Shown: positions 20,337 to 51,209 of the stretch, in pieces | How the letters are laid out: every line of letters begins with the position of its first letter | Numbering within the stretch: position 1 is the stretch's first letter | Assembly: GCA_963730065.1 (NCBI GenBank) | Contig: CAVSQL010000023.1 | Location: 64,926-128,925, forward strand | Origin: an uncultured Actinomycetes bacterium | GTDB taxonomy: Bacteria > Actinomycetota > Actinomycetes > Streptosporangiales > Streptosporangiaceae | DNA: 64,000 bases | Direction: 5' to 3' | Position numbers and translations under genes: made by a program | The notes under the pieces: generated by a model | Told to the model about the DNA's origin: nothing | Database searches by the model: none | What the model saw: the letters and a program-made list of their open reading frames with translations, nothing else

Positions 20337-20867
20337 TGTGATGTCGGCAAGAATTGATAGCCGTCCATATCGGCGGCTCGGCGTGCGTTCTTTCTGGCCT
20401 TCTCTGTCACCCAGCGTAAGATCGTCGATCGCGGTGGTCAGAGGCCATCCGTTAACTCGGCTCAGGAGCGCGTCTGGTCTCGAGGGTCGCTGGTGCAGCC
20501 GGTGCTGCGAACGGGCGGCATCGCCTGCCGCGGGCTTGATCTCGTCTGGCCTGACTTGCTCCGTGTGTGGCGTGGCAGTAGGTGGTCCCCGGGCCAGTGA
20601 GCGGTGGGATGAGATGGTGTGCCAAGGGCCCCCGGTGCCGCCCGCGGCGGCCGCGGGAGGTCGCTGGAACCTTCGGGACGGGCGGACGGTTCGCTCTGGC
20701 ACCCGTCCGGCTGGTCAGCGTCCCGATGGCCGCTGGACCTAGGATCGTTCTAATTCGCCATTTGATAGAGCTATCCACTCCCCCGCTTAACCGCCAGGTG
20801 TGCAGGTGGTCAGGTTCTCCGACATCGCCGGAGCCAGCGCCCCAGCAACTTCTTAATTCCGGCCTAT
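20337..20867. repeat. Left part of a non-coding repeat element, interrupted at 20867
   Basis: 20372-20490 is about 70% identical to 25370-25485. 20738-20867 matches 43188-43364. 20337-20387 is an imperfect inverted repeat of 22603-22649. There is no credible ORF. Confidence 0.6.
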
Positions 20868-22394
20868 TCCTACAGCCGTACTTCGTTAGGGAGCCCAGTG
20901 TGACGGCGTGCGTGAGGAGGGCCGCGTCACGCACCCAGTTGGTGATCTTGACCCACTGGGGTTCCACGCTGAGCGGTAACGTTCCCGGAACGGTGCGGGC
21001 GTAGGTTGTGCCGTGTGGGGGAAGCGCAGCCAGCGGCCGGGCGGGCACCGGTGACGACGGGAGTCACGGCCCGCCGGTTCCGCGTGGCGTCACCGGCGAT
21101 TTGGGTGATCCTCCTGGGAGGTCTGGCTGCGCTGTCGCTCGTGGCCGCGATCGCGCTGACGCTCATGGCACATCAGGAGTTCAACGGGCTCGTGGCGCTG
21201 GTGATCGGCGTTCCGTGCGCGGCGGTCGGGGTGCTGGTTGCGCGGCGCCAGCCGCGCAACCCGATCGGGTGGCTCTTTCTGGTGATCGCTGCGTGTCTGT
21301 TTCTGGGCACCGATGGCTCTGACTACGCGTTCCTGGCCTACCGCCTCGGGCATCATCTTCCGCTGGGCGCGGTGGGGCTGGCGCTGGGCCAGCTGTGGGG
21401 CCCCGGCCTCGTCTTGCTGTTCGTGGTGATCCTGCTCTTCCCCGATGGCAGGCTGCCGTCCCGCTTCTGGCGCCGGGCCCTGTGGGTGTACTGCGCGATC
21501 TACGCGGTGCTGCTGGTGGCAACTGCCGTGGCGACGGCTGGTGCCCTCGCCGCGCACCCCATCCGCGTCGACGCCAGCGGCGGGCTGTCCGCTGTTAACA
21601 CCCCGGCCGGCTGGTTTAAGGCCGTCCAGGCCCCGGCAATCATCATGCTGCTCGTGCTGTCGCTGTGCTTCATCGGCCGCCAGGTGCTGAGCTGGCGGCG
21701 CTCGTCCAGTGACCGGCGCCAGCAGCTGAAGTGGCTGGCCAGCGGAGCGGCCTTCACTCTTGTCTGTGCGGGCCTTTCGGGGTCCCTCGGCTCGTCGGGC
21801 ATAACCTTCCTAAATGTGGTGGGCGGGTTTGCCTGGTTCGGCTGGGCGGCGCTGCCGGTGAGCATCGGCGTGGCGATCCTGCGGTACCGGCTGTACGACA
21901 TCGACCGGATCATCAGCCGGACCCTGGCTTATGCCATCGTGACCGGGCTGCTGATCGGGGTGTACGCCGGGCTGGTGCTGCTGGCCACCCGGGTGCTGCC
22001 GCTCTCGCTGTCCACCCCGGTCGCGGTGGCCTGCGCCACGCTGGTGGCCGCCGCGCTGTTCAACCCGCTCCGGCGGCGGGTGCAGCGCGCCGTGGACCGC
22101 CGGTTCAACCGGGCCCGCTACGACGCCGACAAGACCATCGCCGCGTTCGCGGCCCGGCTGCAAGACGCCCTCGACCTGGATGCGGTCCAAGATGACCTGG
22201 CCGGTGTCGTGCACCAGGCACTGGAACCCGCCCACGTATCAGTGTGGATCAGCCAACACGGCTGAGACTGGCTGCCAGGGACTCCGCCACCGTCAAGCCC
22301 GGCTCAGCGCGGGACCAGCAGTCCAGATTCTCCCAGATCAAGCGGCAAGCCAAGCCGCGACCCCGGGTCTTGTCACGAAGTGCGGCTGTAGGAC
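20868..22394 (+). mobile_element. 1,527-bp IR-bounded insertion with 4-bp target duplication (CTAT) and no transposase gene
   Basis: Termini are TCCTACAGCCGTACTTCGTTA (20868-) and the reverse complement of TCCTACAGCCGCACCTTCGTGA (-22394). CTAT is present at 20864-20867 and 22395-22398, but only once in the uninterrupted repeat copy at 43361-43364. Confidence 0.7.
21006..22265 (+). CDS. Polytopic membrane protein resembling the N-terminal sensor module of actinobacterial HisKA_3 histidine kinases (no kinase domains)
   Basis: About 8-10 hydrophobic spans, then ILRYRLYDIDRIISRTLAYAIVTG...AALFNPLRRRVQRAVDRRFNRARYDADKTIAAFAARLQDALDLD...LEPAHVSVWISQHG stop. The start is uncertain; GTG near 21087 is an alternative. 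Confidence 0.8.
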   Translation: MCRVGEAQPAAGRAPVTTGVTARRFRVASPAIWVILLGGLAALSLVAAIALTLMAHQEFNGLVALVIGVPCAAVGVLVARRQPRNPIGWLFLVIAACLFLGTDGSDYAFLAYRLGHHLPLGAVGLALGQLWGPGLVLLFVVILLFPDGRLPSRFWRRALWVYCAIYAVLLVATAVATAGALAAHPIRVDASGGLSAVNTPAGWFKAVQAPAIIMLLVLSLCFIGRQVLSWRRSSSDRRQQLKWLASGAAFTLVCAGLSGSLGSSGITFLNVVGGFAWFGWAALPVSIGVAILRYRLYDIDRIISRTLAYAIVTGLLIGVYAGLVLLATRVLPLSLSTPVAVACATLVAAALFNPLRRRVQRAVDRRFNRARYDADKTIAAFAARLQDALDLDAVQDDLAGVVHQALEPAHVSVWISQHG

Positions 22395-22649
22395 TATCTG
22401 GCTCGAATGCGGCCGAATGACGGGGAACGCCCAGGCCATCTTCACCATGCCCCAGCGTGTACGACTTGCCCTGCCGCGTCACACCCGCGGTCAAGATGAC
22501 AAGCAGGACCTGCTCTAGGCGCCCGTTTCCCGGTGCCCGGCAGGCAGCAGGATACCTGCTACGCATTGTGAGATCGCACGGTAGTCCCCATGCGCTGGCA
22601 GGCGCGCCTATCGCCGAATATTTGCGGCTATCGAGGCCGACCGAGACAC
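22395..22649. repeat. Right part of the interrupted non-coding repeat element
   Basis: 22395-22617 aligns with 43361-43583 with scattered substitutions and 1-nt indels, i.e. a non-coding pattern. 22603-22649 is an inverted repeat of 20337-20387. Confidence 0.6.
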
Positions 22650-22929: not shown

Positions 22930-23184
22930 CAGCGGAAGAGATCCAGGGGCTGACTGGAGATCGCGACCGGATTGCCCAGCGCCTCAACAACGTCGTGGTC
23001 CACCGGTTGTTCGCCGCCGGGACTGGGCCTCCATGCGGCGCTGCGCCTGGTTGGCGATCACCCAGAGGCGAGGATCGACCATGCCATCGGTGAACTGGAC
23101 CGGGCCAGCACGGACCTTCGGGACGCAATCTTCGATCGTGTTCCGGCAACCGCGGTCGCCCACCCGGATGGCAGCCATGGATAG
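22930..23184 (+). pseudogene. HisKA_3-like dimerisation-domain fragment, frameshifted and lacking the phospho-acceptor His
   Basis: Two frames join to read GDRDRIAQRLNNVVVHRLFAAG / LGLHAALRLVGDHPEARIDHAIGELDRASTDLRDAIFD. The usual LHD is replaced by LNN. No HATPase domain follows. Confidence 0.4.
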
Positions 23185-29335: not shown

Positions 29336-30253
29336 TTACCGGGCGGCGCCAGCGAGGTAGGCCGCGACGATATAGGTGGCGTGCCGGTCGAGACTGCCGC
29401 GGGCGCGGTCATACCGCATGGTGGTCCTGGGATCGGCGTGTGAGGCGGCTTCCTGCACATCCCGGAGCGGAACCCCGGCGTCGAGGGCGGCGGTGATGAA
29501 CGCGTGTCGTAGCGTGTGCGGCCCGACCGGCTTGGTGATCCCGGCGCGGCGGGCAACCCGGCGGGCGATCCGAGCGGCACCATGCCGGTCCAGTCGCTGG
29601 CCGTTGAGCGTGACGAAGATCGGTCCTTCCACGCGCTCGCCGATGGCCAGGTCGATCGCCCGCGCGGTGCGGGGCGCGAGCGGAATAGTGACCAGCTTGC
29701 CGCCCTTGCGGGTGATAACCAGCGTCCGGTGGCCGCGCTCGACCCCCAGGGCCTGGATGTTGGCACCGGTGGCTTCGGAAACTCGCAAACCGTTCAGCGC
29801 CAGCAACGAGATCAGCGCATGCTCGGCGGCGTGGCCAAGCCCGGCGGCGACCAGCAGCGCGCCGAGCTCATTGCGGTCCAGCCCGGCGGCATGCGACTCA
29901 TAGTCAAGGCGGGGACGGCGCACATGCGCGGCCGGAGAATGGTCGAGCAAGTCTTCTTCGACCGCGTATTTGTAGAATCCGGCGATGGTGCACAGGCGGC
30001 GGGTGATCGTGGCCCGGGCGCGGCCGCGGGCTTCCAGGTCGCGGGCGAAGCACTCGATATCCGCGCGGCGCGCCTGAAACAGTGGCAGGTGGTGCTGCTG
30101 ACACCAGCCGGCGTACTGGCGCAAGTCCAAGGCGTACGCCTCGCGGGTCAAGCCGGTGTAACCGGCCAAGAACCCAGCCAGGGCAAGGCGTTCCGGCTCG
30201 GTGAACACCGGTTCGACGGCGGCAACAGCTGTAGATGTGGACGTGGTGGCCAT
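29336..30253 (-). CDS. Tyrosine recombinase / site-specific integrase (XerC/D-like, SAM-like N-domain)
   Basis: MATTSTS...LALAGFLAGYTGLTREAYALDLRQYAGWC...ITRRLCTIAGFYKYAV...LLALNGLRVSEA...GPHTLRHAFITAALDAGVPLRDVQEAASHADPRTTMRYD (R..HxxR..Y catalytic pattern). Confidence 0.9.
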   Translation of the reverse strand: MATTSTSTAVAAVEPVFTEPERLALAGFLAGYTGLTREAYALDLRQYAGWCQQHHLPLFQARRADIECFARDLEARGRARATITRRLCTIAGFYKYAVEEDLLDHSPAAHVRRPRLDYESHAAGLDRNELGALLVAAGLGHAAEHALISLLALNGLRVSEATGANIQALGVERGHRTLVITRKGGKLVTIPLAPRTARAIDLAIGERVEGPIFVTLNGQRLDRHGAARIARRVARRAGITKPVGPHTLRHAFITAALDAGVPLRDVQEAASHADPRTTMRYDRARGSLDRHATYIVAAYLAGAAR

Positions 30254-30599
30254 GGGCACCTCCCGGGTCGGGCTGAGGCCCGAGGGAGGCTGGACCCGCC
30301 ACGGCCCCAGCAACGATTCTTCACTTCACCGGTAAGCCGACCCGGGCGATCACGCAAGGTCACCGCTGCGATTCTGGCCGTTGCTCCGGATCGATGCTCC
30401 TATGTCTGTCAAGTCTCTGGAATGGTGAATTTGTTTTCCTTTCCGCTGGATGAACTAGTGATCAGGTCGTTTGCTGGGTTGCGGACAGGACAGGGATGGG
30501 CCACGAGGGCAGGCTCTTATGAGGTCACGCCCAGCAGGTCAGGTAAGGGGGTCCGGGGGCGGCCGACGGATCGTTAGAAGGCCAGCACCAGAGGTGCGG

Positions 30600-31868
30600 C
30601 AGCCGATTAGCGGGTCAGGCCGCCCCCGGTGGCTCGGGTAGTCAGCTGGGCCGCAGGTGCCGGTAGGTTTCGCGGGCTGCGTAGCGTTTGAGACAGCGGA
30701 TGATCTCGGGCTTGGACAGGCCTTCCTTGCTGCGCCGGGCGACATAGGCGCGGGTCGGCGGGTGCGAGCCCATCCGGGTGATGACGATCCGCCACAGGGC
30801 GTGGTTAGCCTGCCGGTCTCCACCGCGGTTGAGCCGGTGCCGGGCCACCTTGCCCGAGGAGGCCGGGATCGGCGCGGCCGCGCACAGGTGCGCCCAGGCG
30901 GCTTCGGATCTGAGCCGGCCGGGGTGGTCTCCGGCCGCGATGAGCAGCATCGCGGCCGTGTCCGGGCCGACGCCGAAGAGGCTGAGCAGCCCCGGAGCGC
31001 GGGCGGTGACCAGCGGCACGATCAGCTGGCCGAGCCGGGCGAGCTGGCCGTCGAGGTACTGGGCGCGGCGGCCGAGCTCGCGCAGCGACAGCAGCGTGTG
31101 GTAGCGGACCATGCTGCCCGGCCGGGGCCGGAGCGCGGTCAGCTCGGCGACCAGTTCTGCTGGCGTCTGCCCGGTGAACCGGGTGCGGATGTCGTCCGGC
31201 CCGGTGATGATCAGCGCCCTGGCCTGGTTGATCGTCTGGGTCCGCTGCGCCCGGGCGGTGCGCTTGGCGACCATCAGCGCCCGGATCGCCTCCACCTGCC
31301 CATCCCGGCCCCTGGGCGCACCCGACGCCCTCCCAGACTGGGCTGCGCGGGCAGCGCTGACCGCATCGAGGGGATCGGACTTGCCCTTGCGGCGCCGGTC
31401 CTGCCGGTCCGACCGGTCCACCTCCACCACCCGGATCCCGGCCGCGGCGATGTGCCGGGCCAAGCCGGCGCCGTAGCTGCCGGTGCCCTCGATCCCGACC
31501 AGGCCCACCGTGCCGAAGCCGGTCAGCCAGCCCAGTAACTGCCCGTACCCCACCGGGGTCGCCGGGAACTCGCGCACCCCCAGCAGCCCGCCGATCCCGT
31601 CCAGCGCGGCCGCGACATGGGCATCGGCGTGCGTATCTACTCCGCCGGTGACGGCACAGGTATCTACCATGGACAACGTCATCCCTTTCGTGGTTGAGGG
31701 ATGGCACGCACCCGCTGGCCGCCGGACTGGCAAACCCTGGCCTCTTGCCCAGGCCAGGCAGCCCCGGGACGGCACCGCCGGTGGGTGCCAGAACAAAACC
31801 TGGGACCCCGGCCGACAGGTCGTTTCCGAAGACAACCAGCGGCGTCAGCCGATTAGCAGGTCAGGCCG
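30600..31868 (-). mobile_element. Second type of IS110-family element, bracketed by 23-bp direct repeats
   Basis: CAGCCGATTAGCGGGTCAGGCCG (30600-30622) and CAGCCGATTAGCAGGTCAGGCCG (31846-31868) bracket the transposase. About 163 nt of 5' non-coding and 19 nt of 3' non-coding DNA lie between them. The true IS ends cannot be fixed from a single copy. Confidence 0.6.
30642..31682 (-). CDS. IS110 family transposase
   Basis: MTLSMVDTCAVTGGVDTHADAHVAAALD...VGIEGTGSYGAGLARH...GKSDPLDAVSAARA...LFGVGPDTAAMLLIAAGD...SSGKVARHRLNRGGDRQANHALWRIV. Confidence 0.9.
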   Translation of the reverse strand: MTLSMVDTCAVTGGVDTHADAHVAAALDGIGGLLGVREFPATPVGYGQLLGWLTGFGTVGLVGIEGTGSYGAGLARHIAAAGIRVVEVDRSDRQDRRRKGKSDPLDAVSAARAAQSGRASGAPRGRDGQVEAIRALMVAKRTARAQRTQTINQARALIITGPDDIRTRFTGQTPAELVAELTALRPRPGSMVRYHTLLSLRELGRRAQYLDGQLARLGQLIVPLVTARAPGLLSLFGVGPDTAAMLLIAAGDHPGRLRSEAAWAHLCAAAPIPASSGKVARHRLNRGGDRQANHALWRIVITRMGSHPPTRAYVARRSKEGLSKPEIIRCLKRYAARETYRHLRPS

Positions 31869-34622: not shown

Positions 34623-34869
34623 GAAATCTTCCACCGCAGTCCCCCTAACGTGACCGGAAGCCTGCCGACGGACCGTGCAGCGCCAGCGCACGAGCCAGCG
34701 CGAAACCCCGTCTCCGCGCGGCCGGGCCCCCTAAGCAGCGCGTGCCCCCGACAGCCAGTCTGGCACGCGGCCGACCCGGGGGCCATGCTGCGAACCTCCC
34801 CAACGGACCCATCTGTGTTGCCAGGCCCCGCCCTGGGCAAGCGGTGGCCGGCCAGGCAAGAGCACCAGC

Positions 34870-35437
34870 CAACAGGGCGTGGGCGCGGGCGGTGACGTAG
34901 GCCAGGAAGACCACGGTCTGGCAGTTCTCCACCTGGCCGGTGATCCCGGCATGCTGGCGGGTGACACCGACGGTCATCAGGCCTTTCTTGAGCTCGGCGG
35001 TCTCATCCAGCACCAGGATCGCCTCCGGGTCACCCAGGTGCGCCACGATGAAGCACTGCAGGGCCTTCAGCGCCGCCTTCCAGTCCCAGGCGTGCTCGCC
35101 CAGCAGCGCCTGCATCCACCGCGGCGTGGCATGCCCGGCGGTCTGGGCCAGCTGCCAGCACGACCTGCGGTCCCCGGCCCCGGCCAGCAGCGCGCCAATA
35201 TAAGCAAACGCCGTCAGCCGCGACCTGGCCTGGCAGAACACCGGCGCGATCGCCGCGCGCAGCTCATCCTGGAGCCGTCCCAGCCAGCTGCCATCTTCTA
35301 CGATGGCCGCAGCGGCCACCTGCTGATCTTGCTTCCTCACAGATCATGATCATCCAGGTGGCCGTCTTGTGCCCAGCTCGCGGCCCCGGCACACCATGAT
35401 CACTCAAGCGCTAGATCACAAACCGGGACTGTAGTAC
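34870..35437 (-). mobile_element. IS701-like element, 5' fragment (left end plus first ~157 codons of the transposase)
   Basis: MRKQDQQVAAAAIVEDGSWLGRLQDEL...VLDETAELKKGLMTVGVTRQHAGITGQVENCQTVVFLAYVTARAHALL, then homology is lost. 35014-35437 is an exact inverted copy of 38702-39125. The terminus reads GTACTACAGTCCCGG. Confidence 0.75.
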
Positions 35438-35520
35438 CGGGCAGGCGGATCTAGCCAGGCCTGCTCGGACTACGTAATGTCGTCAGCGTGTAGCTAGGGT
35501 CGTTTAGTGGGGGCGTCGCC

Positions 35521-37320
35521 GTGACGACAGCGACGAGGGACAGCAGCGCGCGCGGGGTCTTGTGGTCCATGTCCCTGGCCAATGCGATGATCTTGCTCGA
35601 TCAGACGGCGGTGCCGCTAGCGCTTCCCAACATCATGCAGGATTTCGGCGTCGGGTCTCAGCAGGTGCAGTGGATCCTGAACGCCAGCCTTCCCCCGCTT
35701 GCGGGCCTGCTGGTGCTGGGTGGCCGCCTCGGGGACATGTTCGGGCGCAGGCGCATCTTCATCATCGGCGCGACCGTGTTCACGGGCGCCTCGGCGATCG
35801 GCGCCCTGGCGCCGGTGTTCGCGGTGCTGCTGGCCTGCCGCATGCTGCAAGGGGCGGGCGAGGCGCTGATACTGCCGAACACAGTGGCGATCGTGAGCGC
35901 GGCCTTCCCAGACGAGGAACGGGGCCGGGCGCTCGGGCTGATGGGCGGCGTGGCCGCCGTTGCCGGAGCACTCGGACCCACCATCGGCGGGGCCCTGACC
36001 GTGGCCTGGAGCTGGCGGGCGATCCCCCTGATGGACTGCCTGCTGGCCGTGGTCGCGATAGCCTGGACACTGCGGGCAGTGCCGCCTGATACCGCTGATA
36101 GCCGACGATCCGACATCGATCTGGCGGGCACCATTCTGCTCACCGTCACCGTCATCAGCGTGGTGTTCGGCCTGGCCCAGTCGCAGGCGTGGGGGTGGGC
36201 TTCCCCGGGGGTCTTCGTCCCGTTGATCATCGGCGTGTGCACCGGCGCAGCCTTTCTGCGCGTCGAGCGTGCTGTTACCAGCCCGTTGATGAACCTGAAT
36301 CTGCTGTGGCGGCATGCCAATTACCTCGGCAGTACAGCAAGCCAGTTCATCGTCGGGATAACCGGGATGGGCCTCGCGCTGCTGTTCCCGCTGCTGCTGA
36401 TCCTGAACCTGCAGATGAGCCCGGTGCTGGCCGGGCTGGCGCTGACCCCCACGACGCTGCCATTCGTGTTTGTGCCTCCGCTGGCCGGGCGCTGGTATGA
36501 CCGTGTGGGCGGCCGCCCGCCGCTGATCGCGGGCTTCGCCACGCTGCTGGCCGCGACGGTGCTGCTGGCATGGGGGGTGCACAGCAACGCTTACCTGCCC
36601 GTGTTCCCGGGCCTCCTGCTGTACGGGATCGCCCTGGCCCTGATCCTGACCGTCAATGATCCAGTCAGCCTCGACATGGTCCCGGCCAGTGACCGCGGCC
36701 AGGTATCAGGGGTATCCACGACGGCCGAGCACTTTGGCGGTGCCATCGGTATCGCCGTGCTCTACCTGGTCTTTCACGCCACCTTCGTGCACCAGTTGCA
36801 GTCCAAGGTCTCCGGCATCGCGCTACCAAACATGACCCGGCAGCAGTCAGAGCAATTCAGGAACGCGGTTGCCCAGGCGGTAGGCACCGGTGTGCGGCCC
36901 AGCACCTTTAACAGCTCACTGACCCCCTACCTGCTGCCGGCCCGGGCAGCCTCCGAGGACGGGTACAGCGCGGCCTTCATAGCAGTCAGCGTGCTGTGCG
37001 TGGTGGCACTTGTCTTGATGATCCGGCTGATCCGCAAGCCGCCCGGCGCACCCGAACTCGCCGAGATAAAGGCCGCCGACAGCCACGCCGGGGCAGGCCA
37101 CGATGCCAACCCAGGTAGCCACAATGGCACTGACGAGACCATCGCCGACCCGCAGCAAAGCCCGGCTGCCCCAACGGCGCACGCTGATGCCCCTATGTCA
37201 AGCCGACGCGACGCTGAGCTCGCCCCACCGGTGCACCAGGAAAGCGCAGCAACCGCGCCGCCTAAGGAACGACCGACGAGGAGTCAAGGGCCGGCGGTAG
37301 GTGGGACCGGCAAGGACTGA
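35521..37320 (+). CDS. MFS transporter, DHA2 (EmrB/QacA, 14-TMS) type, with an unusually long low-complexity C-terminal tail
   Basis: LANAMILLDQTAVPLALPNIMQDFG...GGRLGDMFGRRRIFIIGATVFTGASAIGALAP..., 14 hydrophobic spans, and the last ~90 aa are Pro/Ala/charge rich. Confidence 0.9.
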   Translation: MTTATRDSSARGVLWSMSLANAMILLDQTAVPLALPNIMQDFGVGSQQVQWILNASLPPLAGLLVLGGRLGDMFGRRRIFIIGATVFTGASAIGALAPVFAVLLACRMLQGAGEALILPNTVAIVSAAFPDEERGRALGLMGGVAAVAGALGPTIGGALTVAWSWRAIPLMDCLLAVVAIAWTLRAVPPDTADSRRSDIDLAGTILLTVTVISVVFGLAQSQAWGWASPGVFVPLIIGVCTGAAFLRVERAVTSPLMNLNLLWRHANYLGSTASQFIVGITGMGLALLFPLLLILNLQMSPVLAGLALTPTTLPFVFVPPLAGRWYDRVGGRPPLIAGFATLLAATVLLAWGVHSNAYLPVFPGLLLYGIALALILTVNDPVSLDMVPASDRGQVSGVSTTAEHFGGAIGIAVLYLVFHATFVHQLQSKVSGIALPNMTRQQSEQFRNAVAQAVGTGVRPSTFNSSLTPYLLPARAASEDGYSAAFIAVSVLCVVALVLMIRLIRKPPGAPELAEIKAADSHAGAGHDANPGSHNGTDETIADPQQSPAAPTAHADAPMSSRRDAELAPPVHQESAATAPPKERPTRSQGPAVGGTGKD

Positions 37321-37446: not shown

Positions 37447-38160
37447 TCAAAGCCGGTGACGAGGCAGTGCCTGGGAGCGGATCATCACGCAGTCCACCTC
37501 TAGCAGTCGCGCGGTTGCGTTTTCCACCGCTACAGGAAAGAAGCCAGTCACGTCGAGCCCAGCTGCCCGGAAAATACCTAGCGCATTCTCAATCGTTGGC
37601 ATCCCTTCGTAAAGGGGAATAAGAGAAAGCTCGCACTGGAGTCCGACCAGATCATGGATACGGTCGCCTGCGCCCTGGAAGACCTCTATGTCATAGCCCT
37701 GCGTATCCAACTTTAGAAAGGGCCGTGACACGCCAATGCTCGCGGACAACATTTCCATCATGTCGCTTAGCCGCCGCATCGGCACCTTCTCGACATAGGC
37801 AGAATGCCACTCTGGCCAGCATCGCATTGCGTACCGGTTCGGAGACAAGAAACTGCTGCCCGTCCCGTCCATTACGTTCATTGGCCGGTCGCCGGTATCC
37901 CGACCAAGCGCTGCACGATACGCCCACCATTTCGGATCGGGCGCCGCAACCGCCTCGAGCCGCTTGAAGTACTCGTTGACTGGCTCAAAGGAGACAATCG
38001 GACCTGAATAGCCAGCATGCCTCAGCGCGGATCCAAACTCGCCAACGTGAGCCCCGACATCCAGGACGCAGTCCGCCTCGTACGACTCTAGCAGCGCGGC
38101 AAGGTGTTCAAATTGCGATGCCACCGATGCCTTACCGTCCATAACAGTCACGAGTGCCAT
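37447..38160 (-). CDS. FkbM family SAM-dependent methyltransferase
   Basis: CVLDVGAHVGEFGSALRHAGYSGPIVSFEPVNEYF...FLKLDTQGYDIEVFQGAG. The gene and its flanks (about 37330-38700) are visibly lower in GC than the rest of the window. Confidence 0.85.
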   Translation of the reverse strand: MALVTVMDGKASVASQFEHLAALLESYEADCVLDVGAHVGEFGSALRHAGYSGPIVSFEPVNEYFKRLEAVAAPDPKWWAYRAALGRDTGDRPMNVMDGTGSSFLSPNRYAMRCWPEWHSAYVEKVPMRRLSDMMEMLSASIGVSRPFLKLDTQGYDIEVFQGAGDRIHDLVGLQCELSLIPLYEGMPTIENALGIFRAAGLDVTGFFPVAVENATARLLEVDCVMIRSQALPRHRL

Positions 38161-38701
38161 AGGATCCTCCTGCGCTGAGGCAAAGACTCTTTCCCGTCAA
38201 GAGAGCGACAACACCTGATTCCGAGCCTCTTATAAGCGTAACTGGTCAGATTGTCTTTCCTAAGCGCCTATCCAAAAGTCCTGCGCGTAACGGGCCGCTC
38301 TCAGCCCAGCTATCTTTAGCCATCCTCCTGCTCCCAGCTGGATCGGCATGTCCAGCGCCTCTGCCACCCTGCCGAGTTGCTCGGCCACCGCGAGTGTCGC
38401 TTGCACCGGCACCCGCGCTGAGATGGACGCTCCGAGCGGTCCGCTACGGGCCAACAGCCGCTGGGCCCAGGCGGATAGCGAGGTCGTCGGCCTGGTCAGG
38501 TGTTGGACAGATCACCACAGTCATTGACGGAGGGGATCAGGGCTGGCCTGATTTTGGCCTTACAATGCTGCATAACAAGGGAAGACTACGCGAGCCAGTG
38601 AGAACCATCCTGGCAGGCCAGTCACCGAGTGCCCAGGTAGCTGGCGCGCCCGTCACAATCTACGGATCGGCCCTTGGTACCGCTGGCACGGCGCCGTACC
38701 T

Positions 38702-39125
38702 GTACTACAGTCCCGGTTTGTGATCTAGCGCTTGAGTGATCATGGTGTGCCGGGGCCGCGAGCTGGGCACAAGACGGCCACCTGGATGATCATGATCTGT
38801 GAGGAAGCAAGATCAGCAGGTGGCCGCTGCGGCCATCGTAGAAGATGGCAGCTGGCTGGGACGGCTCCAGGATGAGCTGCGCGCGGCGATCGCGCCGGTG
38901 TTCTGCCAGGCCAGGTCGCGGCTGACGGCGTTTGCTTATATTGGCGCGCTGCTGGCCGGGGCCGGGGACCGCAGGTCGTGCTGGCAGCTGGCCCAGACCG
39001 CCGGGCATGCCACGCCGCGGTGGATGCAGGCGCTGCTGGGCGAGCACGCCTGGGACTGGAAGGCGGCGCTGAAGGCCCTGCAGTGCTTCATCGTGGCGCA
39101 CCTGGGTGACCCGGAGGCGATCCTG
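38702..39125 (+). mobile_element. IS701-like element, 5' fragment (left end plus first 109 codons), inverted relative to 35014-35437
   Basis: Identical to the reverse complement of 35014-35437. The reading frame is broken after ...HLGDPEAIL at 39125. Confidence 0.8.
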
Positions 39126-39922: not shown

Positions 39923-41197
39923 ATGGCTCCGGAGATCGATCACGCCCTGGCGGTCAGCGGAGCCCGTGCCCTGCTCGCGCATGCCGAGCGGGAGGAAGAT
40001 CTGGCCGCAAGCCAGCTCGCGCGGCAGCTGCCGTTGGGCACCATCAGCTACGGCGGCAAGCCAGGAGCAGGTCCGGCTTTCGGGGAGCTGATTGAGCGGG
40101 AGGCCCGATCTTCGCCTCCGCCGCCTCCTTCTCCGGCGGCGCCTGCCGTGATCTTCTTTACCTCCGGCAGTACCGGACGCCCGAAGGGGGTCACCCATAC
40201 GCACCAGACGCTCGGGTGGATGTTCGCGACGGCGGCGGCAGGGCTCGAGCTCAGCCCCGGCGATCTGCTTCTGGCTGGCTCGTCGCTGTCGCACGTGGGT
40301 GCCTTCTACGTCTCGTTCGCCGCGCTGAGCACAGGCGCTGGGGTGATTGTGGCCCAGACGTTCGATGGGGACGAGCTGCTGCCGCTGCTTCGCGACGACC
40401 GCCCCACGGTGCTGTCGATGCTTCCTTCGGCGCTGTTCACGCTGACCCGCGACCACGGTGCCCGGCACGGCGATTTCGCCTCGCTGCGACTGTGCCGCGG
40501 GGCGGGCGACACCGTCTCCGCGGAGCTGGAACGGGAGTTCACCGCGCTAAGCGGGTTGGTGATCGACGAGGCCTACGGCCTGACCGAAGCCGGGCTGGTG
40601 ACGGTGAGCCCACCATCGGGGCAGATCAAGCCCGGTTCGGTCGGGCAGGTCGTTCCCGCGGTCTCGCTGTCTATCCGCAACGACGACGGCCAGGAGCTGC
40701 CGGTGGGCAGCGAAGGCCGCCTGTGGATCAAGACTCCCGCGGCCACCGTCGGCTACTGGGACGACCTGGGCGCGACCGAGACGGCCTTCAGCAACGGGTG
40801 GCTCGACTCCGGCGATGTGATGCGAGCCGACGACGAGGGCTACTTCTTTTTCTGCGGGCGCAAGAAGCAGATCATCGTCCACGACGGCTCGAACATCTGC
40901 CCCCAGGAGGTCGAGGGCGCCCTGCTCGAGCACCCGGGCGTCGCCAGCGCTGGGGTGATCGGGATCCACGACCTTATCCACGGTGAGAACGTCCGCGCCT
41001 ACATCACCCTTGCGGAGGGGACCGCGCGCCCGGCCAGCCAGGAGCTGATCCAGTTCGCCCGCGCGAGGATCGGTTACAAGGCGCCCGACGAAATAGTCGT
41101 CCTCGACCAAATGCCGCTCACCGCCACCGGGAAACTGGACCGGACACACCTGAAGCGCATGGCCGAGGCGAACCTCACACGCGGGGCTAACCGATGA
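39923..41197 (+). CDS. AMP-dependent synthetase/ligase (acyl-CoA synthetase family); 5'-truncated by the IS remnant and carrying an in-frame TAG at 39920-39922
   Basis: The same frame upstream reads ...GLSPGDRVASLMPNRPALVVHYLACFKAGLVATPLNYR-TAG-MAPEIDHAL... Downstream: IFFTSGSTGRPKGVTHTH...EAYGLTEAG...GWLDSGDVMRADDEGYFFFCGRKKQIIV...TATGKLDR. Probably a pseudogene, or expressed as an N-terminally shortened protein. Confidence 0.75.
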   Translation: MAPEIDHALAVSGARALLAHAEREEDLAASQLARQLPLGTISYGGKPGAGPAFGELIEREARSSPPPPPSPAAPAVIFFTSGSTGRPKGVTHTHQTLGWMFATAAAGLELSPGDLLLAGSSLSHVGAFYVSFAALSTGAGVIVAQTFDGDELLPLLRDDRPTVLSMLPSALFTLTRDHGARHGDFASLRLCRGAGDTVSAELEREFTALSGLVIDEAYGLTEAGLVTVSPPSGQIKPGSVGQVVPAVSLSIRNDDGQELPVGSEGRLWIKTPAATVGYWDDLGATETAFSNGWLDSGDVMRADDEGYFFFCGRKKQIIVHDGSNICPQEVEGALLEHPGVASAGVIGIHDLIHGENVRAYITLAEGTARPASQELIQFARARIGYKAPDEIVVLDQMPLTATGKLDRTHLKRMAEANLTRGANR

Positions 41198-42294: not shown

Positions 42295-42432
42295 GAACAC
42301 CCAGGACCGCGCGAACAGGAGCAATGCTTGAAACCTGTGGATCGGCCGGGAAGGGGTGTACCTTCCCGGTGTCCGAGTTGAGGTCTCAAGCAATGACCGG
42401 CGTTGGCGCGCCGGCCGGGAAGGTACAACCCG

Positions 42433-43203
42433 ATGCTCACCGTAGTCCCTGGCGACGGCTCCGGCCACGAGGCTGGTAAGGATGGCTCGCTGATCGATGA
42501 GATTGTCCGGGAAGGCGCGCGGCGGATGCTGGCCGAGGCGCTGGCCGCCGAGGTAGACGCCTATATCGCCCAGTTCACCGCCGCGCGGGACGGGAACGGC
42601 CAGCGCCTGGTGGTGCGCAATGGCTATCACCGGCCGCGGGAGGTACTGACCAGCGCGGGCGCGGTGGAGGTGACCGTGCCGCGGGTCAACGACAAGCGCA
42701 CCGACCCGGCTACCGGCGAGCGGCAGCGGTTCTCATCGGCGATTCTGCCGCCGTGGGCGCGCAAGACCCCGAAGATCACCGAGGTGCTGCCGCTGCTGTA
42801 TCTGCACGGGCTGTCCAGCGGCGACTTCGTGCCCGCCCTGGGCCAGTTCCTGGGCTCATCTGCCGGGCTGTCGGCGGCGGTGATCACCCGGCTGACCGGG
42901 ACCTGGCAGGCCGGGCAGCGCGCCTTCGCCAGGCGGGACCTGTCCGGCGTGGACTATGTCTATCTGTGGGCCGGCGGGATCCACGTGAACATCCGCCTCG
43001 AAGAGCACAAGCTGTGCCTGCTGGTGATGATCGGCGTGCGCGCCGACGGCCGCAAGGAGCTCATCGCCCTCGCTGACGGCTACCGGGAGTCGGCGGAGTC
43101 GTGGGCGGACCTGCTGCGCGATTGCGCCCGCCGCGGCATGCGCGCCCCGGTGCTGGCCATCGGTGATGGGGCGCTGGGGTTCTGGAATCTAAGACTGTTC
43201 TAA
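42433..43203 (+). pseudogene. IS256 family transposase, truncated after ~252 of ~400+ codons
   Basis: MLTVVPGDG...LIDEIVREGARRMLAEALAAEVDAYI...RLVVRNGYHRPREVLTSAGAVEVTVPRVND...LPLLYLHGLSSGDF...YLWAGGIHVNIRLEE...LVMIGVRADGRKELIAL...APVLAIGDGALGFW. It then runs into the non-coding repeat. A possible IRL lies near 42346. Confidence 0.85.
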
Positions 43204-43583
43204 TTCGCTATTCGATAGAGCTATCCGCTCCCCCGCTTAGTCGCCGAGTGTGCAGGTGGTCAGGTCCTCCAGCACCGCCGGGCCAGCCCGGCGCTGGCTG
43301 GCATGGCGTGGCCGGGGCAGCGTCAGGGCGAGCGCGCCACAGCGCTCTGTTAATTCCGGCCTATCTGGCTCGGATGCGGCCGGAGGACGGGAATGCCCAG
43401 GGCTTCTTCACCGTGCCCAGCGTGTACGGCTTGTCGTACCTTGGCCACACCCTCCGTCAAGATGACAAGCGAGGTCTGCCGCACGGTGCTCGTTCTCGGT
43501 GCTCGGCAGACAGCGGGATACCTGCTACGCACTGTGAGATCCGGCGGTAGTCCCGATGCGCTGGTAGGCGCGCCTATCGCCGA
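43188..43583. repeat. Uninterrupted copy (~396 bp) of the non-coding repeat element
   Basis: 43188-43364 matches 20738-20867, with an extra ~47 bp. 43361-43583 matches 22395-22617. It contains an 8-bp stem GTCTGCCG/CGGCAGAC (43474-43511). There is no protein-like frame, and the copies differ by indels. Confidence 0.65.
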
Positions 43584-43750
43584 CTCGGCGCGCCGGGCTG
43601 ACATGTCAACAACTGCGGAGAACTTACGCAGATTATCCGGTTCTGCGTGCGCGGCGCTGAGCGGCCCATGACGTTCACTGCGGTGGAGGGCCGCACAGGC
43701 GACCTAGCGACCAAGGATCGCTAGGCGGTCGGCGGCCCCTAATGAAGGGG

Positions 43751-45970: not shown

Positions 45971-46069
45971 CCAGTTCCAGCCCGGTTCCGGTCCCGCTCC
46001 CCGCTGCGGGACCGGCCCGGCAGCATCCAGACCCGCGAATGAATCACCCCGGGATTTCGTCGAGGCGGA

Positions 46070-46300
46070 CTGCAGCGCCCCGAGTTCGTTGGGGTCCAGC
46101 CCGGTGGCGCGCGAGTCATAGTCCAGCCGGAGGCGGCGGACATGGGCCGCCAGGGAGCGATCGAGCAGGTCTTCCTCCACCGCGTACCGACAGAACCCCG
46201 CGATCGTGCACAGCCGGCGGGTGATGGTGGCCCGGGCGCGGCCGCGCGTCTCCAGGTCGTGGGCGAAGCACTGGATGTCGGCCCGCCGGGTATCGGCGAG
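46070..46300 (-). pseudogene. Tyrosine recombinase internal fragment (paralog of 29336-30253)
   Basis: RRADIQCFAHDLETRGRARATITRRLCTIAGFCRYAVEEDLLDRSLAAHVRRLRLDYDSRATGLDPNELGAL. The N- and C-terminal parts are missing. Confidence 0.7.
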
Positions 46301-46802: not shown

Positions 46803-48569
46803 ATTAGATGACATGCATCGGGCCGGGCTGAGGTCGCTGGCCGGGTGCTGGAGACCTCCCCAGCTCAGACGCGGGTCAGGCTTGACCGCGTAGGCATTTC
46901 GCATGGGGCGCGTGCGCCCCTTCGGAGCGTGAGGAGGTCCCGATGCCCATCGTAGGCGGGCTGGATATCCACCGGAAGCAGCTGACGTTCGACTATCCCG
47001 GCACGGTGACCGGGGAGGTGCGGCGCGGCCAGATCGCCCCGGCCGACCGGGAGCACCTGCGGGCTTGGCTGGTGCGGTTCGCTGGGCGCGGCGACGTCGC
47101 GTTCGCGGTGGAGGGGTGCACGGGGTGGCGGTATGTCGCCGAGGAGCTGGCCGCGGCCGGGATCGCCGCGCATGTGGGCGAGCCGGCCGACACCGCCGCT
47201 GCCCGTGGCCGCAAGCGGCATGCCAAGACCGACAAGACCGACTCCGCGCACTTGCGCCGGCTGCTGGCCGAGGGCAGGCTGCCGGAGTGCTGGGTCCCGC
47301 CGGCGCAGATCCTGGAGTACCGGGCGCTGCTGGAGACCTACCACGACGTGCGCCGCGAGCACACCGCCTGGGTGCAGCGCATCCACGCGGTCTTCTTCCA
47401 CCAGGGCGCGCCAGCGCTGGGCGAAGGCGCGCTGCGTACCGAGCAGGGCCTGGCCGCGCTGCGCGAGGCCGCGGCCGCGCACCTGTCGCCGGGCGGGCAG
47501 CTGCAGGTCGCCACCGCCCTGGACATGCTCGCCGCCATCGAAGCCCGCATGGAGGTACTGCGCACGCAGCTGCGTTATGCCGCCCGGCACCTCACCGGCG
47601 CGAAGGTCCTCGCCGCGCGGCTGTATGGGGTCGGCCCGGTCACCGCGCTGGCGCTGACCTGCTGGCTGGCCGGGGAAGGCCGGTTCTCCTCCTCCCGCAA
47701 GGCGGTCCGGTTCACCGGACTGGACATCACCGTCTGGTCTTCGGACCGCAAAGGCCCGCCCGGGCGCCTGTCCCGGCAGGGGCCACCGGTGCTGCGCTGG
47801 GCGGTGTATGAGGCCGGCAAGACCCACGCCCGCGCTTCGGCCCCCGACCACGGCTACTACGCCGCCGTCAAGGACCGCAAGAACAGCAAGCGCGCGGCCT
47901 TGCCGGAGGCCCGCAAGATCGTCCGGCAGGCCTGCCACATCCTGACCGAACTTGGCGACGACGCGCTCACCGCCGCCTAACCCCTCACCCATGCCGATGG
48001 TCACCAGCCCCGCGACGCGCCGGCGCCGGGCGGGCACACCGCAGCCACACTTCACCCGATGGGGAACCACCGCGGCCAGCTCCCGCGAGCCGCTGTCAGC
48101 CGCTGCCGGCCTTGCCACCAAGGGCCAGGCGGGCGGCCTGATCAGACTGAGCGGCCGCATCCCCGCAAGCCGGGGACACCCAATCAATCATCTTGTCGCC
48201 GGGGCAGCGCCCAAGCCCCGCGGACCCAGGTAAGGCTGGCTGCTCCTCCCCCCGGCCCCGCCCACCACGGCTGGTCACCCGCACAGAAAGGCCCCGGCCT
48301 GAACCACTGACCACACCCACGCACCACCACGGCTCCCTGCCCTGCCGCCTGGCAATGATCCGCTCCCGGGCGGCCGCCTCAAGGACGCCTAACGGCGCCG
48401 GCTACGCCGACCGGGCTCCCGCCCGGTCCTTGACCCGCCCGCCCGGTCGCAGGCCCGGCAGCTATCAGGGGCAGGGAGCCAACTTAACCATGCCCACACA
48501 GAGCAGCTCATGGGGCCGCAACGCCCAGGCCGAACCACCTTGCGGCGTCACCCGATACAGGTAAGGCGG
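46803..48569 (+). mobile_element. IS110-family insertion sequence, copy B
   Basis: Co-linear with 982-2748, with 3 differences out of 1,767 bp. Confidence 0.9.
46943..47980 (+). CDS. IS110 family transposase (copy B; Gly35Asp relative to copy A)
   Basis: 345 aa, identical to the 1122-2159 product except AGRE to ADRE. Confidence 0.95.
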   Translation: MPIVGGLDIHRKQLTFDYPGTVTGEVRRGQIAPADREHLRAWLVRFAGRGDVAFAVEGCTGWRYVAEELAAAGIAAHVGEPADTAAARGRKRHAKTDKTDSAHLRRLLAEGRLPECWVPPAQILEYRALLETYHDVRREHTAWVQRIHAVFFHQGAPALGEGALRTEQGLAALREAAAAHLSPGGQLQVATALDMLAAIEARMEVLRTQLRYAARHLTGAKVLAARLYGVGPVTALALTCWLAGEGRFSSSRKAVRFTGLDITVWSSDRKGPPGRLSRQGPPVLRWAVYEAGKTHARASAPDHGYYAAVKDRKNSKRAALPEARKIVRQACHILTELGDDALTAA

Positions 48570-49508: not shown

Positions 49509-51209
49509 AGAAAGTGGCTCTGGCTCAATTGTCGTGACGGGGTCAGTCGGCGAGCAGGACGCGCTTGCGGAGCAGGTCGGGTTTCGCGCGCCCATACATC
49601 TGTCTTTTGATCATCTTGATGCGGTTGACGTGGCCTTCGACCGCGCCGGAGCTGTAGGGCACGGTGAGCCCGGCGGTGACGGCGGCCCAGTCTTTGCGGA
49701 GTCCCTTGCTGAAGCCGCGGAGCTCGCTGACCGGGCTGTTCTCGGCCTGGGCGGCCCAGGCTTCCAGGCGCTCGCCATGGCGGTGGCAGAGCATGTCCGC
49801 GAACTCGCGGACTAGGGCCCGGGTGGTGGTGAGTTCTTCACAACGGGCGGTGATCTGGGCGAGCGCGGCGCGATCAGCGTCGGCGAGCTTGCCGGGCGGG
49901 GTGAGGATCCAGCTGGCGACCTTCCTGGCCGCAGGCGCGGGTGGTGGTGCGGGGACGGCGGTGTCGTGGCGGAGCTGGGCGGTGAGCCGGCGCAGGGTGC
50001 GCAGGCTGCCCTGGTAGCCGCGGGCGCGCAGTTCCTCGTGGAGCCGGTTGGTGCTGCGGGCTCCTTCGTCCCAGCGCTGGCGCAGGTAGGCCTCGTGCGG
50101 GCCGAGCAGGCCCGGCCGGGTGAGGCGGGCGCCGCCGATCAGCTGGTCTGCGGTCGCGGCGGTGGCGTAGCGGCGGACGGTCTTGCGTTCCAGCCTTAAG
50201 GTGCGGCTGATCTCGGTGATGGTCAGCCCGCGGGCCAGCGCGGCGTGGATCTCGCCATGCCGGGCCCGCGTCCGCGCGGCCAGGCCTGCCTCAGGGGCCG
50301 ACACAGCCTGCTGCGCTGGGGGCCCAGAAGCGGGTGGCGGTGGTGGTTCTTGCAGGCAGGAGCGGTTGCGGGCGACCGCACGTTCGACGGCTTCGGCCAG
50401 GTTGTGCCACAGGTGCCACCGATCGGCGACCTGGATCGCCAGTGGCGCGCCCTCGGTTGCGCCTTCGGCATAGCAGCCGCCGCGGTCCCGGCAGATGATC
50501 TCCACGCCGGGGTGGGCGTCCAGCCAGGCCCGGAAGGATTCCGCGGACCGCTCGGGGAGAATGTCGACCGGCCTGCGGGTCTCGATGTCCACCAGCACGG
50601 TGCCGTAGACATGCCCTTTTCGCAAGGCAAAGTCATCGACGCCCAGCACCAGCGGAGTCCGCCCATCCGGGTCGGGTGCGGCCCGGATCAGCCGCAGCAG
50701 CGTGGACCGGCTCGCTGAGCAGGCCAGCCTGCCGGTCAGCCGGGCCCCGGCGCGGCCACCCAGGGCCAGGCCGACCGCCTGCAGCACTGCCTGCAGGCCG
50801 CAGGTCCGCCGGCCATAGCGGGTGGTCAGGCCCGGCATCTGCTCCGCGAACGTGGCCTTCGCGCACCCGTCGTTGCCGCACAAGAACCGCCGGGCCTGCA
50901 GGTGGATGAGCACTTCCTGGCCGCCGCTCGCAGTATCAGCCAGCTTCCGCTGGTAGCGGCTGTGCACCCGCCGCGACACCACGCCGCATCCTGGGCAGGC
51001 CGCCTCACGAGCACAAGCCCGGGCCAGCACACGCACCGACCCGCCCGTCGTGACGACTCGCTCGATGGCCAGACCAGCCAGGTCAGGGACCAGAACAGCG
51101 ACAGTCTCAAGATCGCACGCAGCGCATGATCACAAACACCATGATCAAGACGCCACGGGACACGCCGGGCAGACCACCTCACGGAAAGTGAGCCAGAGCC
51201 ACCGCAACT
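49509..51209 (-). mobile_element. ISL3 family insertion sequence
   Basis: Inverted repeats are GTGGCTCTGGCTCA(A/C)TT..CGTGA at 49514-49537 and 51179-51202 (reverse complement). The canonical GGCTCT ends would be 49516 and 51200. TGGCCATG (49501-49508) and TGGCCATT (51210-51217) lie 7-9 bp outside those ends and may be an imperfect 8-bp duplication. Confidence 0.8.
49543..51036 (-). CDS. ISL3 family transposase
   Basis: ACPGCGVVSRRVHSRYQRKLADTASGGQEVLIHLQARRFLC (zinc-finger N-domain) ...VLGVDDFALRKGHVYGTVLVDIETRRPVDILPERSAESFRAWL...IQVADRWHLWHNL...GAVEGHVNRIKMIKRQMYGRA. The protein-like frame continues upstream to about 51105 (TVAVLVPDLAGLAIERVVTTGGS) without an obvious start codon. Confidence 0.9.
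   Translation of the reverse strand: MRVLARACAREAACPGCGVVSRRVHSRYQRKLADTASGGQEVLIHLQARRFLCGNDGCAKATFAEQMPGLTTRYGRRTCGLQAVLQAVGLALGGRAGARLTGRLACSASRSTLLRLIRAAPDPDGRTPLVLGVDDFALRKGHVYGTVLVDIETRRPVDILPERSAESFRAWLDAHPGVEIICRDRGGCYAEGATEGAPLAIQVADRWHLWHNLAEAVERAVARNRSCLQEPPPPPASGPPAQQAVSAPEAGLAARTRARHGEIHAALARGLTITEISRTLRLERKTVRRYATAATADQLIGGARLTRPGLLGPHEAYLRQRWDEGARSTNRLHEELRARGYQGSLRTLRRLTAQLRHDTAVPAPPPAPAARKVASWILTPPGKLADADRAALAQITARCEELTTTRALVREFADMLCHRHGERLEAWAAQAENSPVSELRGFSKGLRKDWAAVTAGLTVPYSSGAVEGHVNRIKMIKRQMYGRAKPDLLRKRVLLAD

Follow-up and report, generated by a model that had tools for sequence, protein, structure and literature searches.

A 1,526-bp insert with IS701-type ends and a kinase-less sensor gene: a probable mobile insertion cassette in an uncultured actinomycete

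Introduction

How could a DNA segment that is bounded like an insertion sequence (IS), and whose only gene encodes a membrane protein, have been inserted into its present site? The question is raised by an insert at 20868–22393 of a 64,000-nucleotide stretch of DNA (the window) from an uncultured Actinomycetes bacterium of the Streptosporangiaceae (NCBI GenBank assembly GCA_963730065.1, contig CAVSQL010000023.1, positions 64,926–128,925). The insert interrupts a repeat of ~400 bp, here called the host repeat, a second copy of which lies uninterrupted elsewhere in the window. A preliminary description, made from the sequence of the window alone, had proposed a transposase-less cassette that carries a cargo gene and is mobilised in trans. 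We consider, with a probability of roughly 0.8, that the insert is a transposase-less, non-autonomous derivative of the IS701 family, that is, a mobile insertion cassette (MIC); that the helper is an IS701 element is the least secure step of this reading. An element with IS701-type ends, target and duplication but without an IS701 transposase is a mobile insertion cassette by definition.

Results

The insert is 1,526 bp long, as determined by direct reading of the sequence and by alignment of its flanks. The filled copy of the host repeat occupies 20739–20867 and 22394–22617 and is 82–85% identical to the empty copy at 43189–43587. At the left junction the host sequence TTAATTCCGGCCTAT ends at 20867 and the insert begins at 20868 with TCCTACAGCCGTACTTCGTTA; at the right junction the last bases of the insert, TCACGAAGTGCGGCTGTAGGA, reach 22393 and the host sequence CTATCTGGCTCGAATGCGGCC continues from 22394. 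Across the target site the empty copy reads TTAATTCCGGCCTATCTGGCTCGGATGCGGCC and contains only once, at 43361–43364, the CTAT that stands on both sides of the insert (20864–20867 and 22394–22397). Relative to the paralogous empty site, this is an insertion precise to the base, with a 4-bp target-site duplication. The filled-/empty-site pair and the duplication had been recognised in the preliminary description, but its insert length of 1,527 bp had to be corrected to 1,526 bp, and the right CTAT, placed there at 22395, starts at 22394. A sibling contig obtained from a different sample (L002; loci outside the window are designated by L numbers) shares this insertion and is 99.98% identical over the common part.

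Could the structure have arisen without any insertion, by a local inversion or duplication that rearranged the host repeat or what was once a kinase gene? IS debris abounds in the region, and a degenerate, frameshifted HisKA_3-like remnant lies ~0.5 kb downstream of the insert. However, alignment with the empty copy shows that the host repeat continues exactly behind the 4-bp duplication; in other samples this gene is enclosed by the same ends at sites unrelated to the present one (see below); and the remnant (DRDRIAQRLNNVVVHRLFAAG, ~22930–23184) falls within neither the cassette nor the host repeat, so that it had no part in the insertion. This DHp-like remnant is split by a frameshift and carries N in place of the phospho-accepting H (LNN versus LHD); it gave no Pfam match as read, and a HisKA_3 match below the Pfam cut-off (E = 1.9e-4) after the frames were merged. 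With the remnant outside the inserted unit and its HisKA_3 match weak, the earlier caveat of a rearranged kinase gene falls away, and we regard a rearrangement as very improbable.

The insert is bounded by terminal inverted repeats of 21 nt each, identical at 19 of 21 positions without a gap. Inverted repeats had been noted at these ends, and they are there, but the gapped alignment of ~20/23 positions originally given for them gives way to this ungapped one. The 19-mer TCCTACAGCCGYACTTCGT occurs exactly twice in the 64-kb window, in inverted orientation (0.01 expected from shuffled sequences), and this pair is the top inverted-repeat pair of the region.

To what family do these ends belong? 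The published criteria for the IS701 family are a target duplication of exactly 4 bp, a length of 1,400–1,550 bp and the end consensus ---YACT-Y--YR (PMC2266710). The length of the cassette lies within this range, and 5 of the 7 consensus positions agree when its end is placed in the register of annotated actinomycete elements. Such IS701-family elements (from Nonomuraea, Streptomyces and Rhodococcus) have ends that start TACT[C/A]CAG... in the same register as the cassette, with 12–15 of 19–21 positions identical, ungapped from base 1. In Nonomuraea gerenzanensis the element reads ctag then TACTCCAGTGACACTTGGCG on both sides; in Streptomyces zaomyceticus, ttag then TACTCCAGTGTGACTTCGT and ctaa then TACTCCAGTGCGGTTTCGT, a second site being flanked by ctag and ttag; on Rhodococcus pLW4, ctag then TACTACAGCCGTAAGTTG (14/19 to the cassette, with an identical core of 11 nt); and in Streptomyces NBC_01220, ctag then TACTCCAGTGCGACTTCGTGA (15/21). 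All 10 flanks of these annotated ends are YTAR (CTAG, TTAG or CTAA). The flanks of the cassette family are CTAT/ATAG, CTAA, TTAG, TAAG and GTAG; TAA or TAG stands directly beside the repeat at 9 of 11 ends, against a background frequency of 0.0049 (p about 1e-19). For the IS701 target consensus, the literature search returned only the 4-bp rule and the end consensus; Deinococcus ISDge5, which makes 5-bp duplications, belongs to a different subgroup. The IS701 resemblance suggested in the preliminary description is thereby borne out, and the cassette ends are, as judged by sequence comparison, of IS701 type in sequence, register, duplication length and NTAR/YTAR target preference.

An alternative is that the cassette derives from an element of the IS5 group (IS5 family) rather than from IS701. 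IS5-group elements, E. coli IS5 among them, make 4-bp duplications at YTAR, and both the duplication and the NTAR flanks of the cassette would fit such an origin. IS5-group ends start GG or GA. The cassette ends, on the other hand, match actinomycete IS701 ends base for base (T[A/C]CT[A/C]CAG...ACTTCGT, 12–15 of 19–21), and annotated IS701 elements likewise use YTAR, so that the target is no argument for IS5. No IS5-family transposase was found among the window open reading frames scanned, and the 4-bp duplication at YTAR is the single feature in common with the IS5 group. We therefore regard an IS5 origin as improbable.

The window itself contains two fragments of an IS701-family element in inverted orientation (Table 1). 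The first matches the NF033540 profile 'IS701 family transposase' over 34645–35340, and the ends GTACTACAGTCCCGG lie at 35423–35436 (minus strand) and 38703–38716 (plus strand); the IS701-like fragments that had been noted on the strength of these ends thus proved to be such by their DDE_5 and NF033540 matches. Their end TACTACAGTCCCGGTTTGT is identical to the cassette end at 12 of 19 positions; in this comparison the right repeat beat 500 of 500 shuffles and the left repeat was weaker (28/500). In one relative of the cassette (L075) almost exactly the window's IS701 end is found directly outside cassette-type subterminal sequence. Over 434 bp (35014–35447 and 38692–39125), with the left end and the transposase N-terminus, the fragments are 99% identical, and their ends face inward; they bracket 3.2 kb containing genes for an MFS transporter (35521–37320) and an FkbM-type methyltransferase (37447–38160, minus strand).

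Table 1. Coordinates of the insert, its host repeat and related features in the window. L numbers denote loci outside the window.
Feature	Start	End	Strand	Basis or remark
Host repeat, left part up to the duplication	20739	20863	+	85% identity to 43189–43287
Left copy of target-site duplication, CTAT	20864	20867		Direct reading; single CTAT in empty copy
Left terminal inverted repeat, TCCTACAGCCGTACTTCGTTA	20868	20888	+	Register and motif as in annotated IS701-family ends
Left subterminal region, peculiar to repeat-bearing copies	20889	20975	+	Homologous in L006/L108, L008, L014, L054, L075
Near-palindromic motif GTAACGTTCCCGGAACG, upstream of cargo gene	20976	20992	+	Candidate operator/promoter element travelling with the gene
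Cargo gene	21006	22265	+	419 amino acids from TTG 21006, or 404 from GTG 21051; polytopic membrane protein
Right subterminal region	22266	22372	+	81% identity to L005; partial conservation in L004, L063, L056, L019
Right terminal inverted repeat, reverse complement TCCTACAGCCGCACTTCGTGA	22373	22393	-	19-mer
Right copy of target-site duplication, CTAT	22394	22397		Direct reading
Host repeat, right part	22398	22617	+	82% identity; blastn alignment 43358–43583, CTAT included
IS701-family fragment: left end TACTACAGTCCCGG and transposase N-terminal part	34645	35437	-	DDE_5 E = 2.3e-20; NF033540 E = 4e-33
Second fragment of the same IS701-family element, inverted orientation	38702	39308	+	DDE_5; repeat-pair comparison
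Empty-site copy of host repeat	43189	43587	+	Target CTAT at 43361–43364

The G+C content of the window is 69%, and long open reading frames occur in every frame of it; those in antisense and off-frame positions are the usual artefacts of high G+C content. Within the insert only the cargo frame (21006/21051–22265) has a coding signature, with a GC content by codon position of 0.72/0.51/0.87, in agreement with the single convincing open reading frame reported before. The protein, which falls into no Pfam or NCBIfam family, has >8,000 close homologues and matches 24,815 clusters at 50% identity, the best 150 of which are nearly all stand-alone proteins of ~400 amino acids. A profile built from 57 relatives aligned (hhalign) to residues 70–418 of a 717-residue kinase of Deinococcus peraridilitoris (pDEIPE02, WP_015231682.1) with a probability of 99.7%, E = 5.7e-26 and 32% identity. 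This reference kinase, annotated and re-confirmed as containing GAF, HisKA_3 and HATPase_c domains, has its catalytic domains (HisKA_3, HATPase_c) at residues 502–705; the alignment spans the whole polytopic region and the ILRYRLYDID...FxPLR motif, and the cargo protein reaches no further than the first GAF helix and strand. No complete GAF, DHp (HisKA_3) or HATPase_c domain was matched in the cargo protein by Pfam, and one family member was borderline for Pfam HisKA_7TM (28.1 bits versus a cut-off of 28.6). An AlphaFold2 model of low confidence (predicted local distance difference test score, pLDDT, 56) was all-helical with ~11 long helices. By homology, then, the cargo corresponds to the membrane sensor portion of a HisKA_3-type histidine kinase and lacks the kinase part. 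The ratio of non-synonymous to synonymous substitution rates (dN/dS) between the cargo and its relatives was 0.28–0.57, indicating a conserved protein under purifying selection. Another open reading frame of similar size (424 amino acids, 39923–41197) was considered as a cargo paralog and rejected, as it encodes an AMP-binding enzyme.

Is the element nevertheless autonomous, with a transposase of novel type in the membrane protein or in some unrecognised product? However deeply the repeat-bounded copies have diverged, this gene is the only component constant among them, and its family is also found inside a second, unrelated repeat-bounded unit. Against this stands the homology of the protein to the membrane sensor half of a kinase over its whole length, with an all-helical model of ~11 hydrophobic helices. 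Many family members, moreover, are stably resident in conserved gene neighbourhoods. Neither a nuclease or recombinase signature nor another coding frame was found: Pfam and NCBIfam gave no transposase or recombinase match in the cargo, a profile search of PDB sequences with the cargo family gave no match, and a search of the cassette region against Rfam at a permissive threshold found no RNA. The IS701-type DDE transposase (DDE_5/NF033540) in particular had no match in any frame of 20868–22393. The insert has no space left for a recombinase of the DDE, serine or tyrosine type. A cryptic transposase or recombinase was rejected on the six-frame open reading frames with their third-position GC content, the Pfam/NCBIfam and PDB searches and the all-helical model. 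We conclude that an autonomous element is scarcely credible. The absence of a transposase from the insert had been noted in the preliminary description and holds on all these counts; the profile and structure comparison that it had suggested for the 419-residue protein gave an all-helical homologue of HisKA_3-kinase sensors with no recombinase signature.

If the segment is mobile, further copies should lie at other sites. A scan of JGI metagenomes for the exact 19-nt repeat found three real loci, all of them cargo-bearing, and one chance match (L007, in a proteobacterial trpC-moaC intergenic region); a protein-guided search extended one repeat-bearing locus and added another. The exact 19-mer is thus known from the independent copies L005, L006/L108, L008 and L109, with the same gene adjoining and unrelated flanks. 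The first 19 nt of the left repeat are identical in L108/L006, L008 and L109, and the 19-mer of the right repeat is identical in L005 and matched at 17/19 positions in L017. At the left junction of L108/L006, ...cagTTAAG is followed by TCCTACAG, and the cargo is 56% (protein) and 69% (DNA) identical to that of the window; the flanks are TTAG at the L008 junction and CTAA at the right end of L005. Ends conserved far better than the cargo, together with a rare motif at the insertion sites, are marks of transposition. That a mobile cassette should have further copies was thus confirmed by the identical 19-nt repeat at different flanks in other samples, and relatives with identical ends occupy different sites in the genomes of other organisms.

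A scan of species genomes added 80 loci, all in uncultured Actinomycetes or Streptosporangiaceae metagenome-assembled genomes, with up to 6 diverged paralogs per genome. The repeat core was found in the right place and orientation in ~8 of 84 loci (0.027 expected per zone), namely L014, L017, L030, L054/L055, L056, L063 and L075, usually with homologous subterminal sequence. In a neighbour-joining tree the copies with repeat remnants are scattered over the whole family, many other members of which are stable residents in conserved neighbourhoods. The left subterminal region is lost stepwise in the repeat-less relatives L004, L091, L089 and L003, and in L003, L004 and L089–L092 homology breaks off at differing points within the subterminal regions. 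Two histories both fit this pattern: landed cassettes may be quickly immobilised and eroded, or ends and cargo may be reshuffled by recombination among paralogs.

Several observations weigh against the cassette reading. Only the window copy and the same insertion in L002 have two intact ends and a duplication: L109, flanked by GTAG, has both ends with the right tip degenerate and lacks a duplication, and the right side of L108 is rearranged. No second fully intact copy was present among the loci examined, of which L001, L003, L004, L089–L092, L106, L107 and L110–L113 are repeat-less; the nearest relatives (~90% DNA identity: L003, L004 and L089–L092) are entirely so. Repeat remnants occur in ~10% of the 84 family loci, and most of the family resembles resident genes. 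The CTAT of the window deviates from strict YTAR at its last base. The IS701 fragments in the window are not an obvious helper either, with ends that differ (12/19) and the non-YTAR flanks CCGG and CCTG. Finally, none of the collections searched yielded an element that combines matching ends with a transposase gene, the insert's own genome being covered over the window only.

Could the repeats be relics, so that the cassette no longer moves as a unit and the window copy is an old insertion with ends intact by chance, the family having spread by homologous recombination between paralogs, on integrase-borne islands or in other cassettes? This would accommodate the ~90% of family loci without repeats, the nearest relatives included; L091 and L092, moreover, adjoin two tyrosine recombinases, and copies of the paralog P0119 move within a different unit of 1.7 kb with unrelated repeats (see below). 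However, the 19-nt repeat is perfect between copies whose cargo is only 56% (protein) or 69% (DNA) identical, which demands selection on the ends, i.e. continuing transposition in that lineage, and the window copy retains a perfect duplication and both ends. We consider the relic explanation unlikely.

Searches for a transposase-bearing partner were as follows. The 21-mer end had 0 matches in 185k species genomes; the 19-mer led to no transposase-bearing element in the JGI metagenomes, where it found the cargo-bearing copies and L007; the 17-mer had only two matches in viral contigs, both by chance and inside phage genes; and the 40-nt end had only chance-level matches in plasmids. L094 and L095 are among the chance matches of the exact end scans. 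Since no matching transposase-bearing element was found, mobilisation of the cassette in trans by a borrowed transposase is what we infer rather than what is observed.

Several loci show further structure around the gene family. In L108, the last ~57 bp of the gene hit by the cassette, ending CAGTTAAG, are at ~640–698, and the same ~57 bp recur with 88% identity at ~2130–2190, ending CAGTTAGG, directly after the right-truncated cassette that has no right repeat. The L008 left and L005 right junctions both come from metagenome Ga0335076, their contigs break inside the cassette, and the flanking tetranucleotide is TTAG in both; they might represent the left and right sides of a single insertion, or simply two multi-copy elements at which the assembly broke. 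L005 contains only the last ~50 cargo codons and adjoins another paralog. In L004 (4001–7694) three tandem cargo paralogs (415, 409 and 407 amino acids) have overlapping stop and start codons and adjoin small genes like those of phages or integrative and conjugative elements, including one for an HTH_17 protein; the first tandem copy retains part of the left subterminal sequence of the cassette, without the repeat. Internal stops or large interruptions were seen in ~10% of the species-genome family loci (L023, L024, L026, L031, L056, L062, L069 and L078), which look like pseudogenes or interrupted copies.

P0119, a paralog of 402 amino acids that is 73% identical to the cargo, is found as an identical protein in at least 3 neighbourhoods (with lactamase_B and MFS genes, with unknown genes and with a PBP gene). 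The shared segment of ~1.7 kb is 98.7–98.9% identical (L096 1286–3002, L097 1286–2990, L102 1286–3001) and is bounded by an inverted repeat of ~22 nt unrelated to that of the cassette: TCAATGGATGTGGCAGCCTACCG and the reverse complement TCAATGAATGTGGCAGCCTACCC in L097, and CCAGTGAGTGTGGCACCGTACCG on both sides in L096. The outer 8 nt of these repeats vary between copies, but within a copy one end mirrors the other; a clear target duplication was not seen.

The motif GTAACGTTCCCGGAACG, with up to 2 mismatches, precedes 64 of 93 family genes, the median distance to the gene start being 78 nt. The near-palindromic motif GTAACGYTCCSGGAACG stands upstream of family members with or without terminal repeats. 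Such a shared operator- or promoter-like element suggests that the paralogs may form one regulon.

Discussion

By what route would a transposase-less segment move? We propose that an IS701-family element located elsewhere in the genome would provide a DDE transposase, and that this enzyme would bind the 19–21-nt ends, move the 1,526-bp segment and join it to cuts staggered by 4 bp at a YTAR-like site (here CTAT), which would create the duplication. The conserved region with the palindrome, immediately inward of the left end, would then drive expression of the cargo. The IS701 fragment at 34645–35437 would be an example of the kind of element able to supply such a transposase. A kinase-less sensor module might modulate full-length membrane kinases or act as a decoy for them, which is speculation on our part.

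With IS701 insertion sequences the cassette has in common the end motif T[A/C]CT[A/C]CAG...ACTTCGT, the 4-bp duplication and the YTAR-type target; unlike theirs, its interior consists of a membrane-protein gene and its own upstream region. Without a transposase gene, it should not be filed as an IS701 element. It is non-autonomous and has IS-derived repeats and a target duplication, as miniature inverted-repeat transposable elements (MITEs) do, but MITEs are short and non-coding whereas the cassette has 1,526 bp with a conserved, selected open reading frame of 1.2 kb. An N-terminal polytopic sensor region is shared by the cargo and HisKA_3 kinases; the cargo differs in having no complete GAF, DHp or ATPase domain and in belonging to a large stand-alone family of ~400 amino acids.

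IS-family ends, no transposase gene, a passenger gene and the target duplication of the parent family are among the features by which a mobile insertion cassette is recognised, and the cassette has these four. To our knowledge, few transposase-less cassettes with a real gene are on record, those known being mostly sporadic recent derivatives in Bacillus and Xanthomonas, and perfect repeats with a strongly diverged cargo are unusual among them. The association of repeat and cargo in the present case would be old, judging from identical 19-nt ends with a cargo at 56% identity and from remnants across the family tree. The closest known systems are MICs such as MIC231 of Bacillus cereus, which derives from IS231 of the IS4 family (cited in PMC2266710). 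Such MICs and the cassette alike are bounded by IS-family inverted repeats, lack a transposase, and have one or a few passenger genes and a target duplication of the family type; mobilisation in trans is presumed or shown for such MICs, whereas we deduce it for the cassette. Compared with MIC231, the cassette has ends of IS701 rather than IS231 type, an actinomycete host and a kinase-less sensor as cargo. It would extend this kind of element to the IS701 family and to soil actinomycetes, and its perfectly conserved ends, with the cargo at 56% identity, imply that a passenger gene has been in lasting association with the transposase it borrows. As a practical consequence for annotation, genes for a 'hypothetical membrane protein' can form the body of a mobile element.

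We asked whether the whole ~400-residue stand-alone sensor-half family could be, at its root, a mobile gene that parasitises transposases, with the repeat-bounded state ancestral. Two features prompt this: remnants of the repeat and subterminal regions turn up throughout the tree, in members with as little as 50% identity, and the gene is found in several repeat systems, namely two variants of IS701-type ends and the ~22-nt repeat of P0119. Most 'resident' paralogs would then be immobilised former cassettes. We offer this extension tentatively and hold it to be doubtful. The family comprises thousands of clusters at 50% identity, with several copies per genome; were the extension true, it would provide a concrete mechanism for the expansion of a very large family of sensor-module paralogs, a natural setting in which to study how non-autonomous elements survive over the long term, and a long-lived selfish or adaptive cargo lineage persisting on borrowed transposases, possibly owing to interference of a kinase-less sensor module with the signalling of the host.

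Other mobile DNA at the locus and in the window

The host repeat of ~400 bp has sharp boundaries in three contexts: chromosomal DNA, a truncated IS256 transposase gene (42403–43203) and an IS630 fragment in L002. No terminal repeats, convincing open reading frame or Rfam match were found for it; at a permissive threshold, Rfam returned a single chance-level miRNA match for the empty-site copy. In L002 an additional 682 bp (2007–2688) stand exactly at the left edge of the host repeat (20738/20739 in the window) and encode the C-terminal portion of a transposase of the IS630 family (NF033545, E = 1e-46). This segment is missing from the window and is therefore a second structural polymorphism at the locus.

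Elsewhere in the window, two copies of an IS110-family element (982–2159 and 46803–47980) have a common stretch of 300 nt that is 100% identical, as far as compared. A third IS110-type gene lies at 30642–31835 (minus strand) and an ISL3 transposase gene at 49543–51036 (minus strand). Tyrosine-recombinase genes are repeated at 76–80% identity at 29336–30313, 46064–46288 and 55081–55814.

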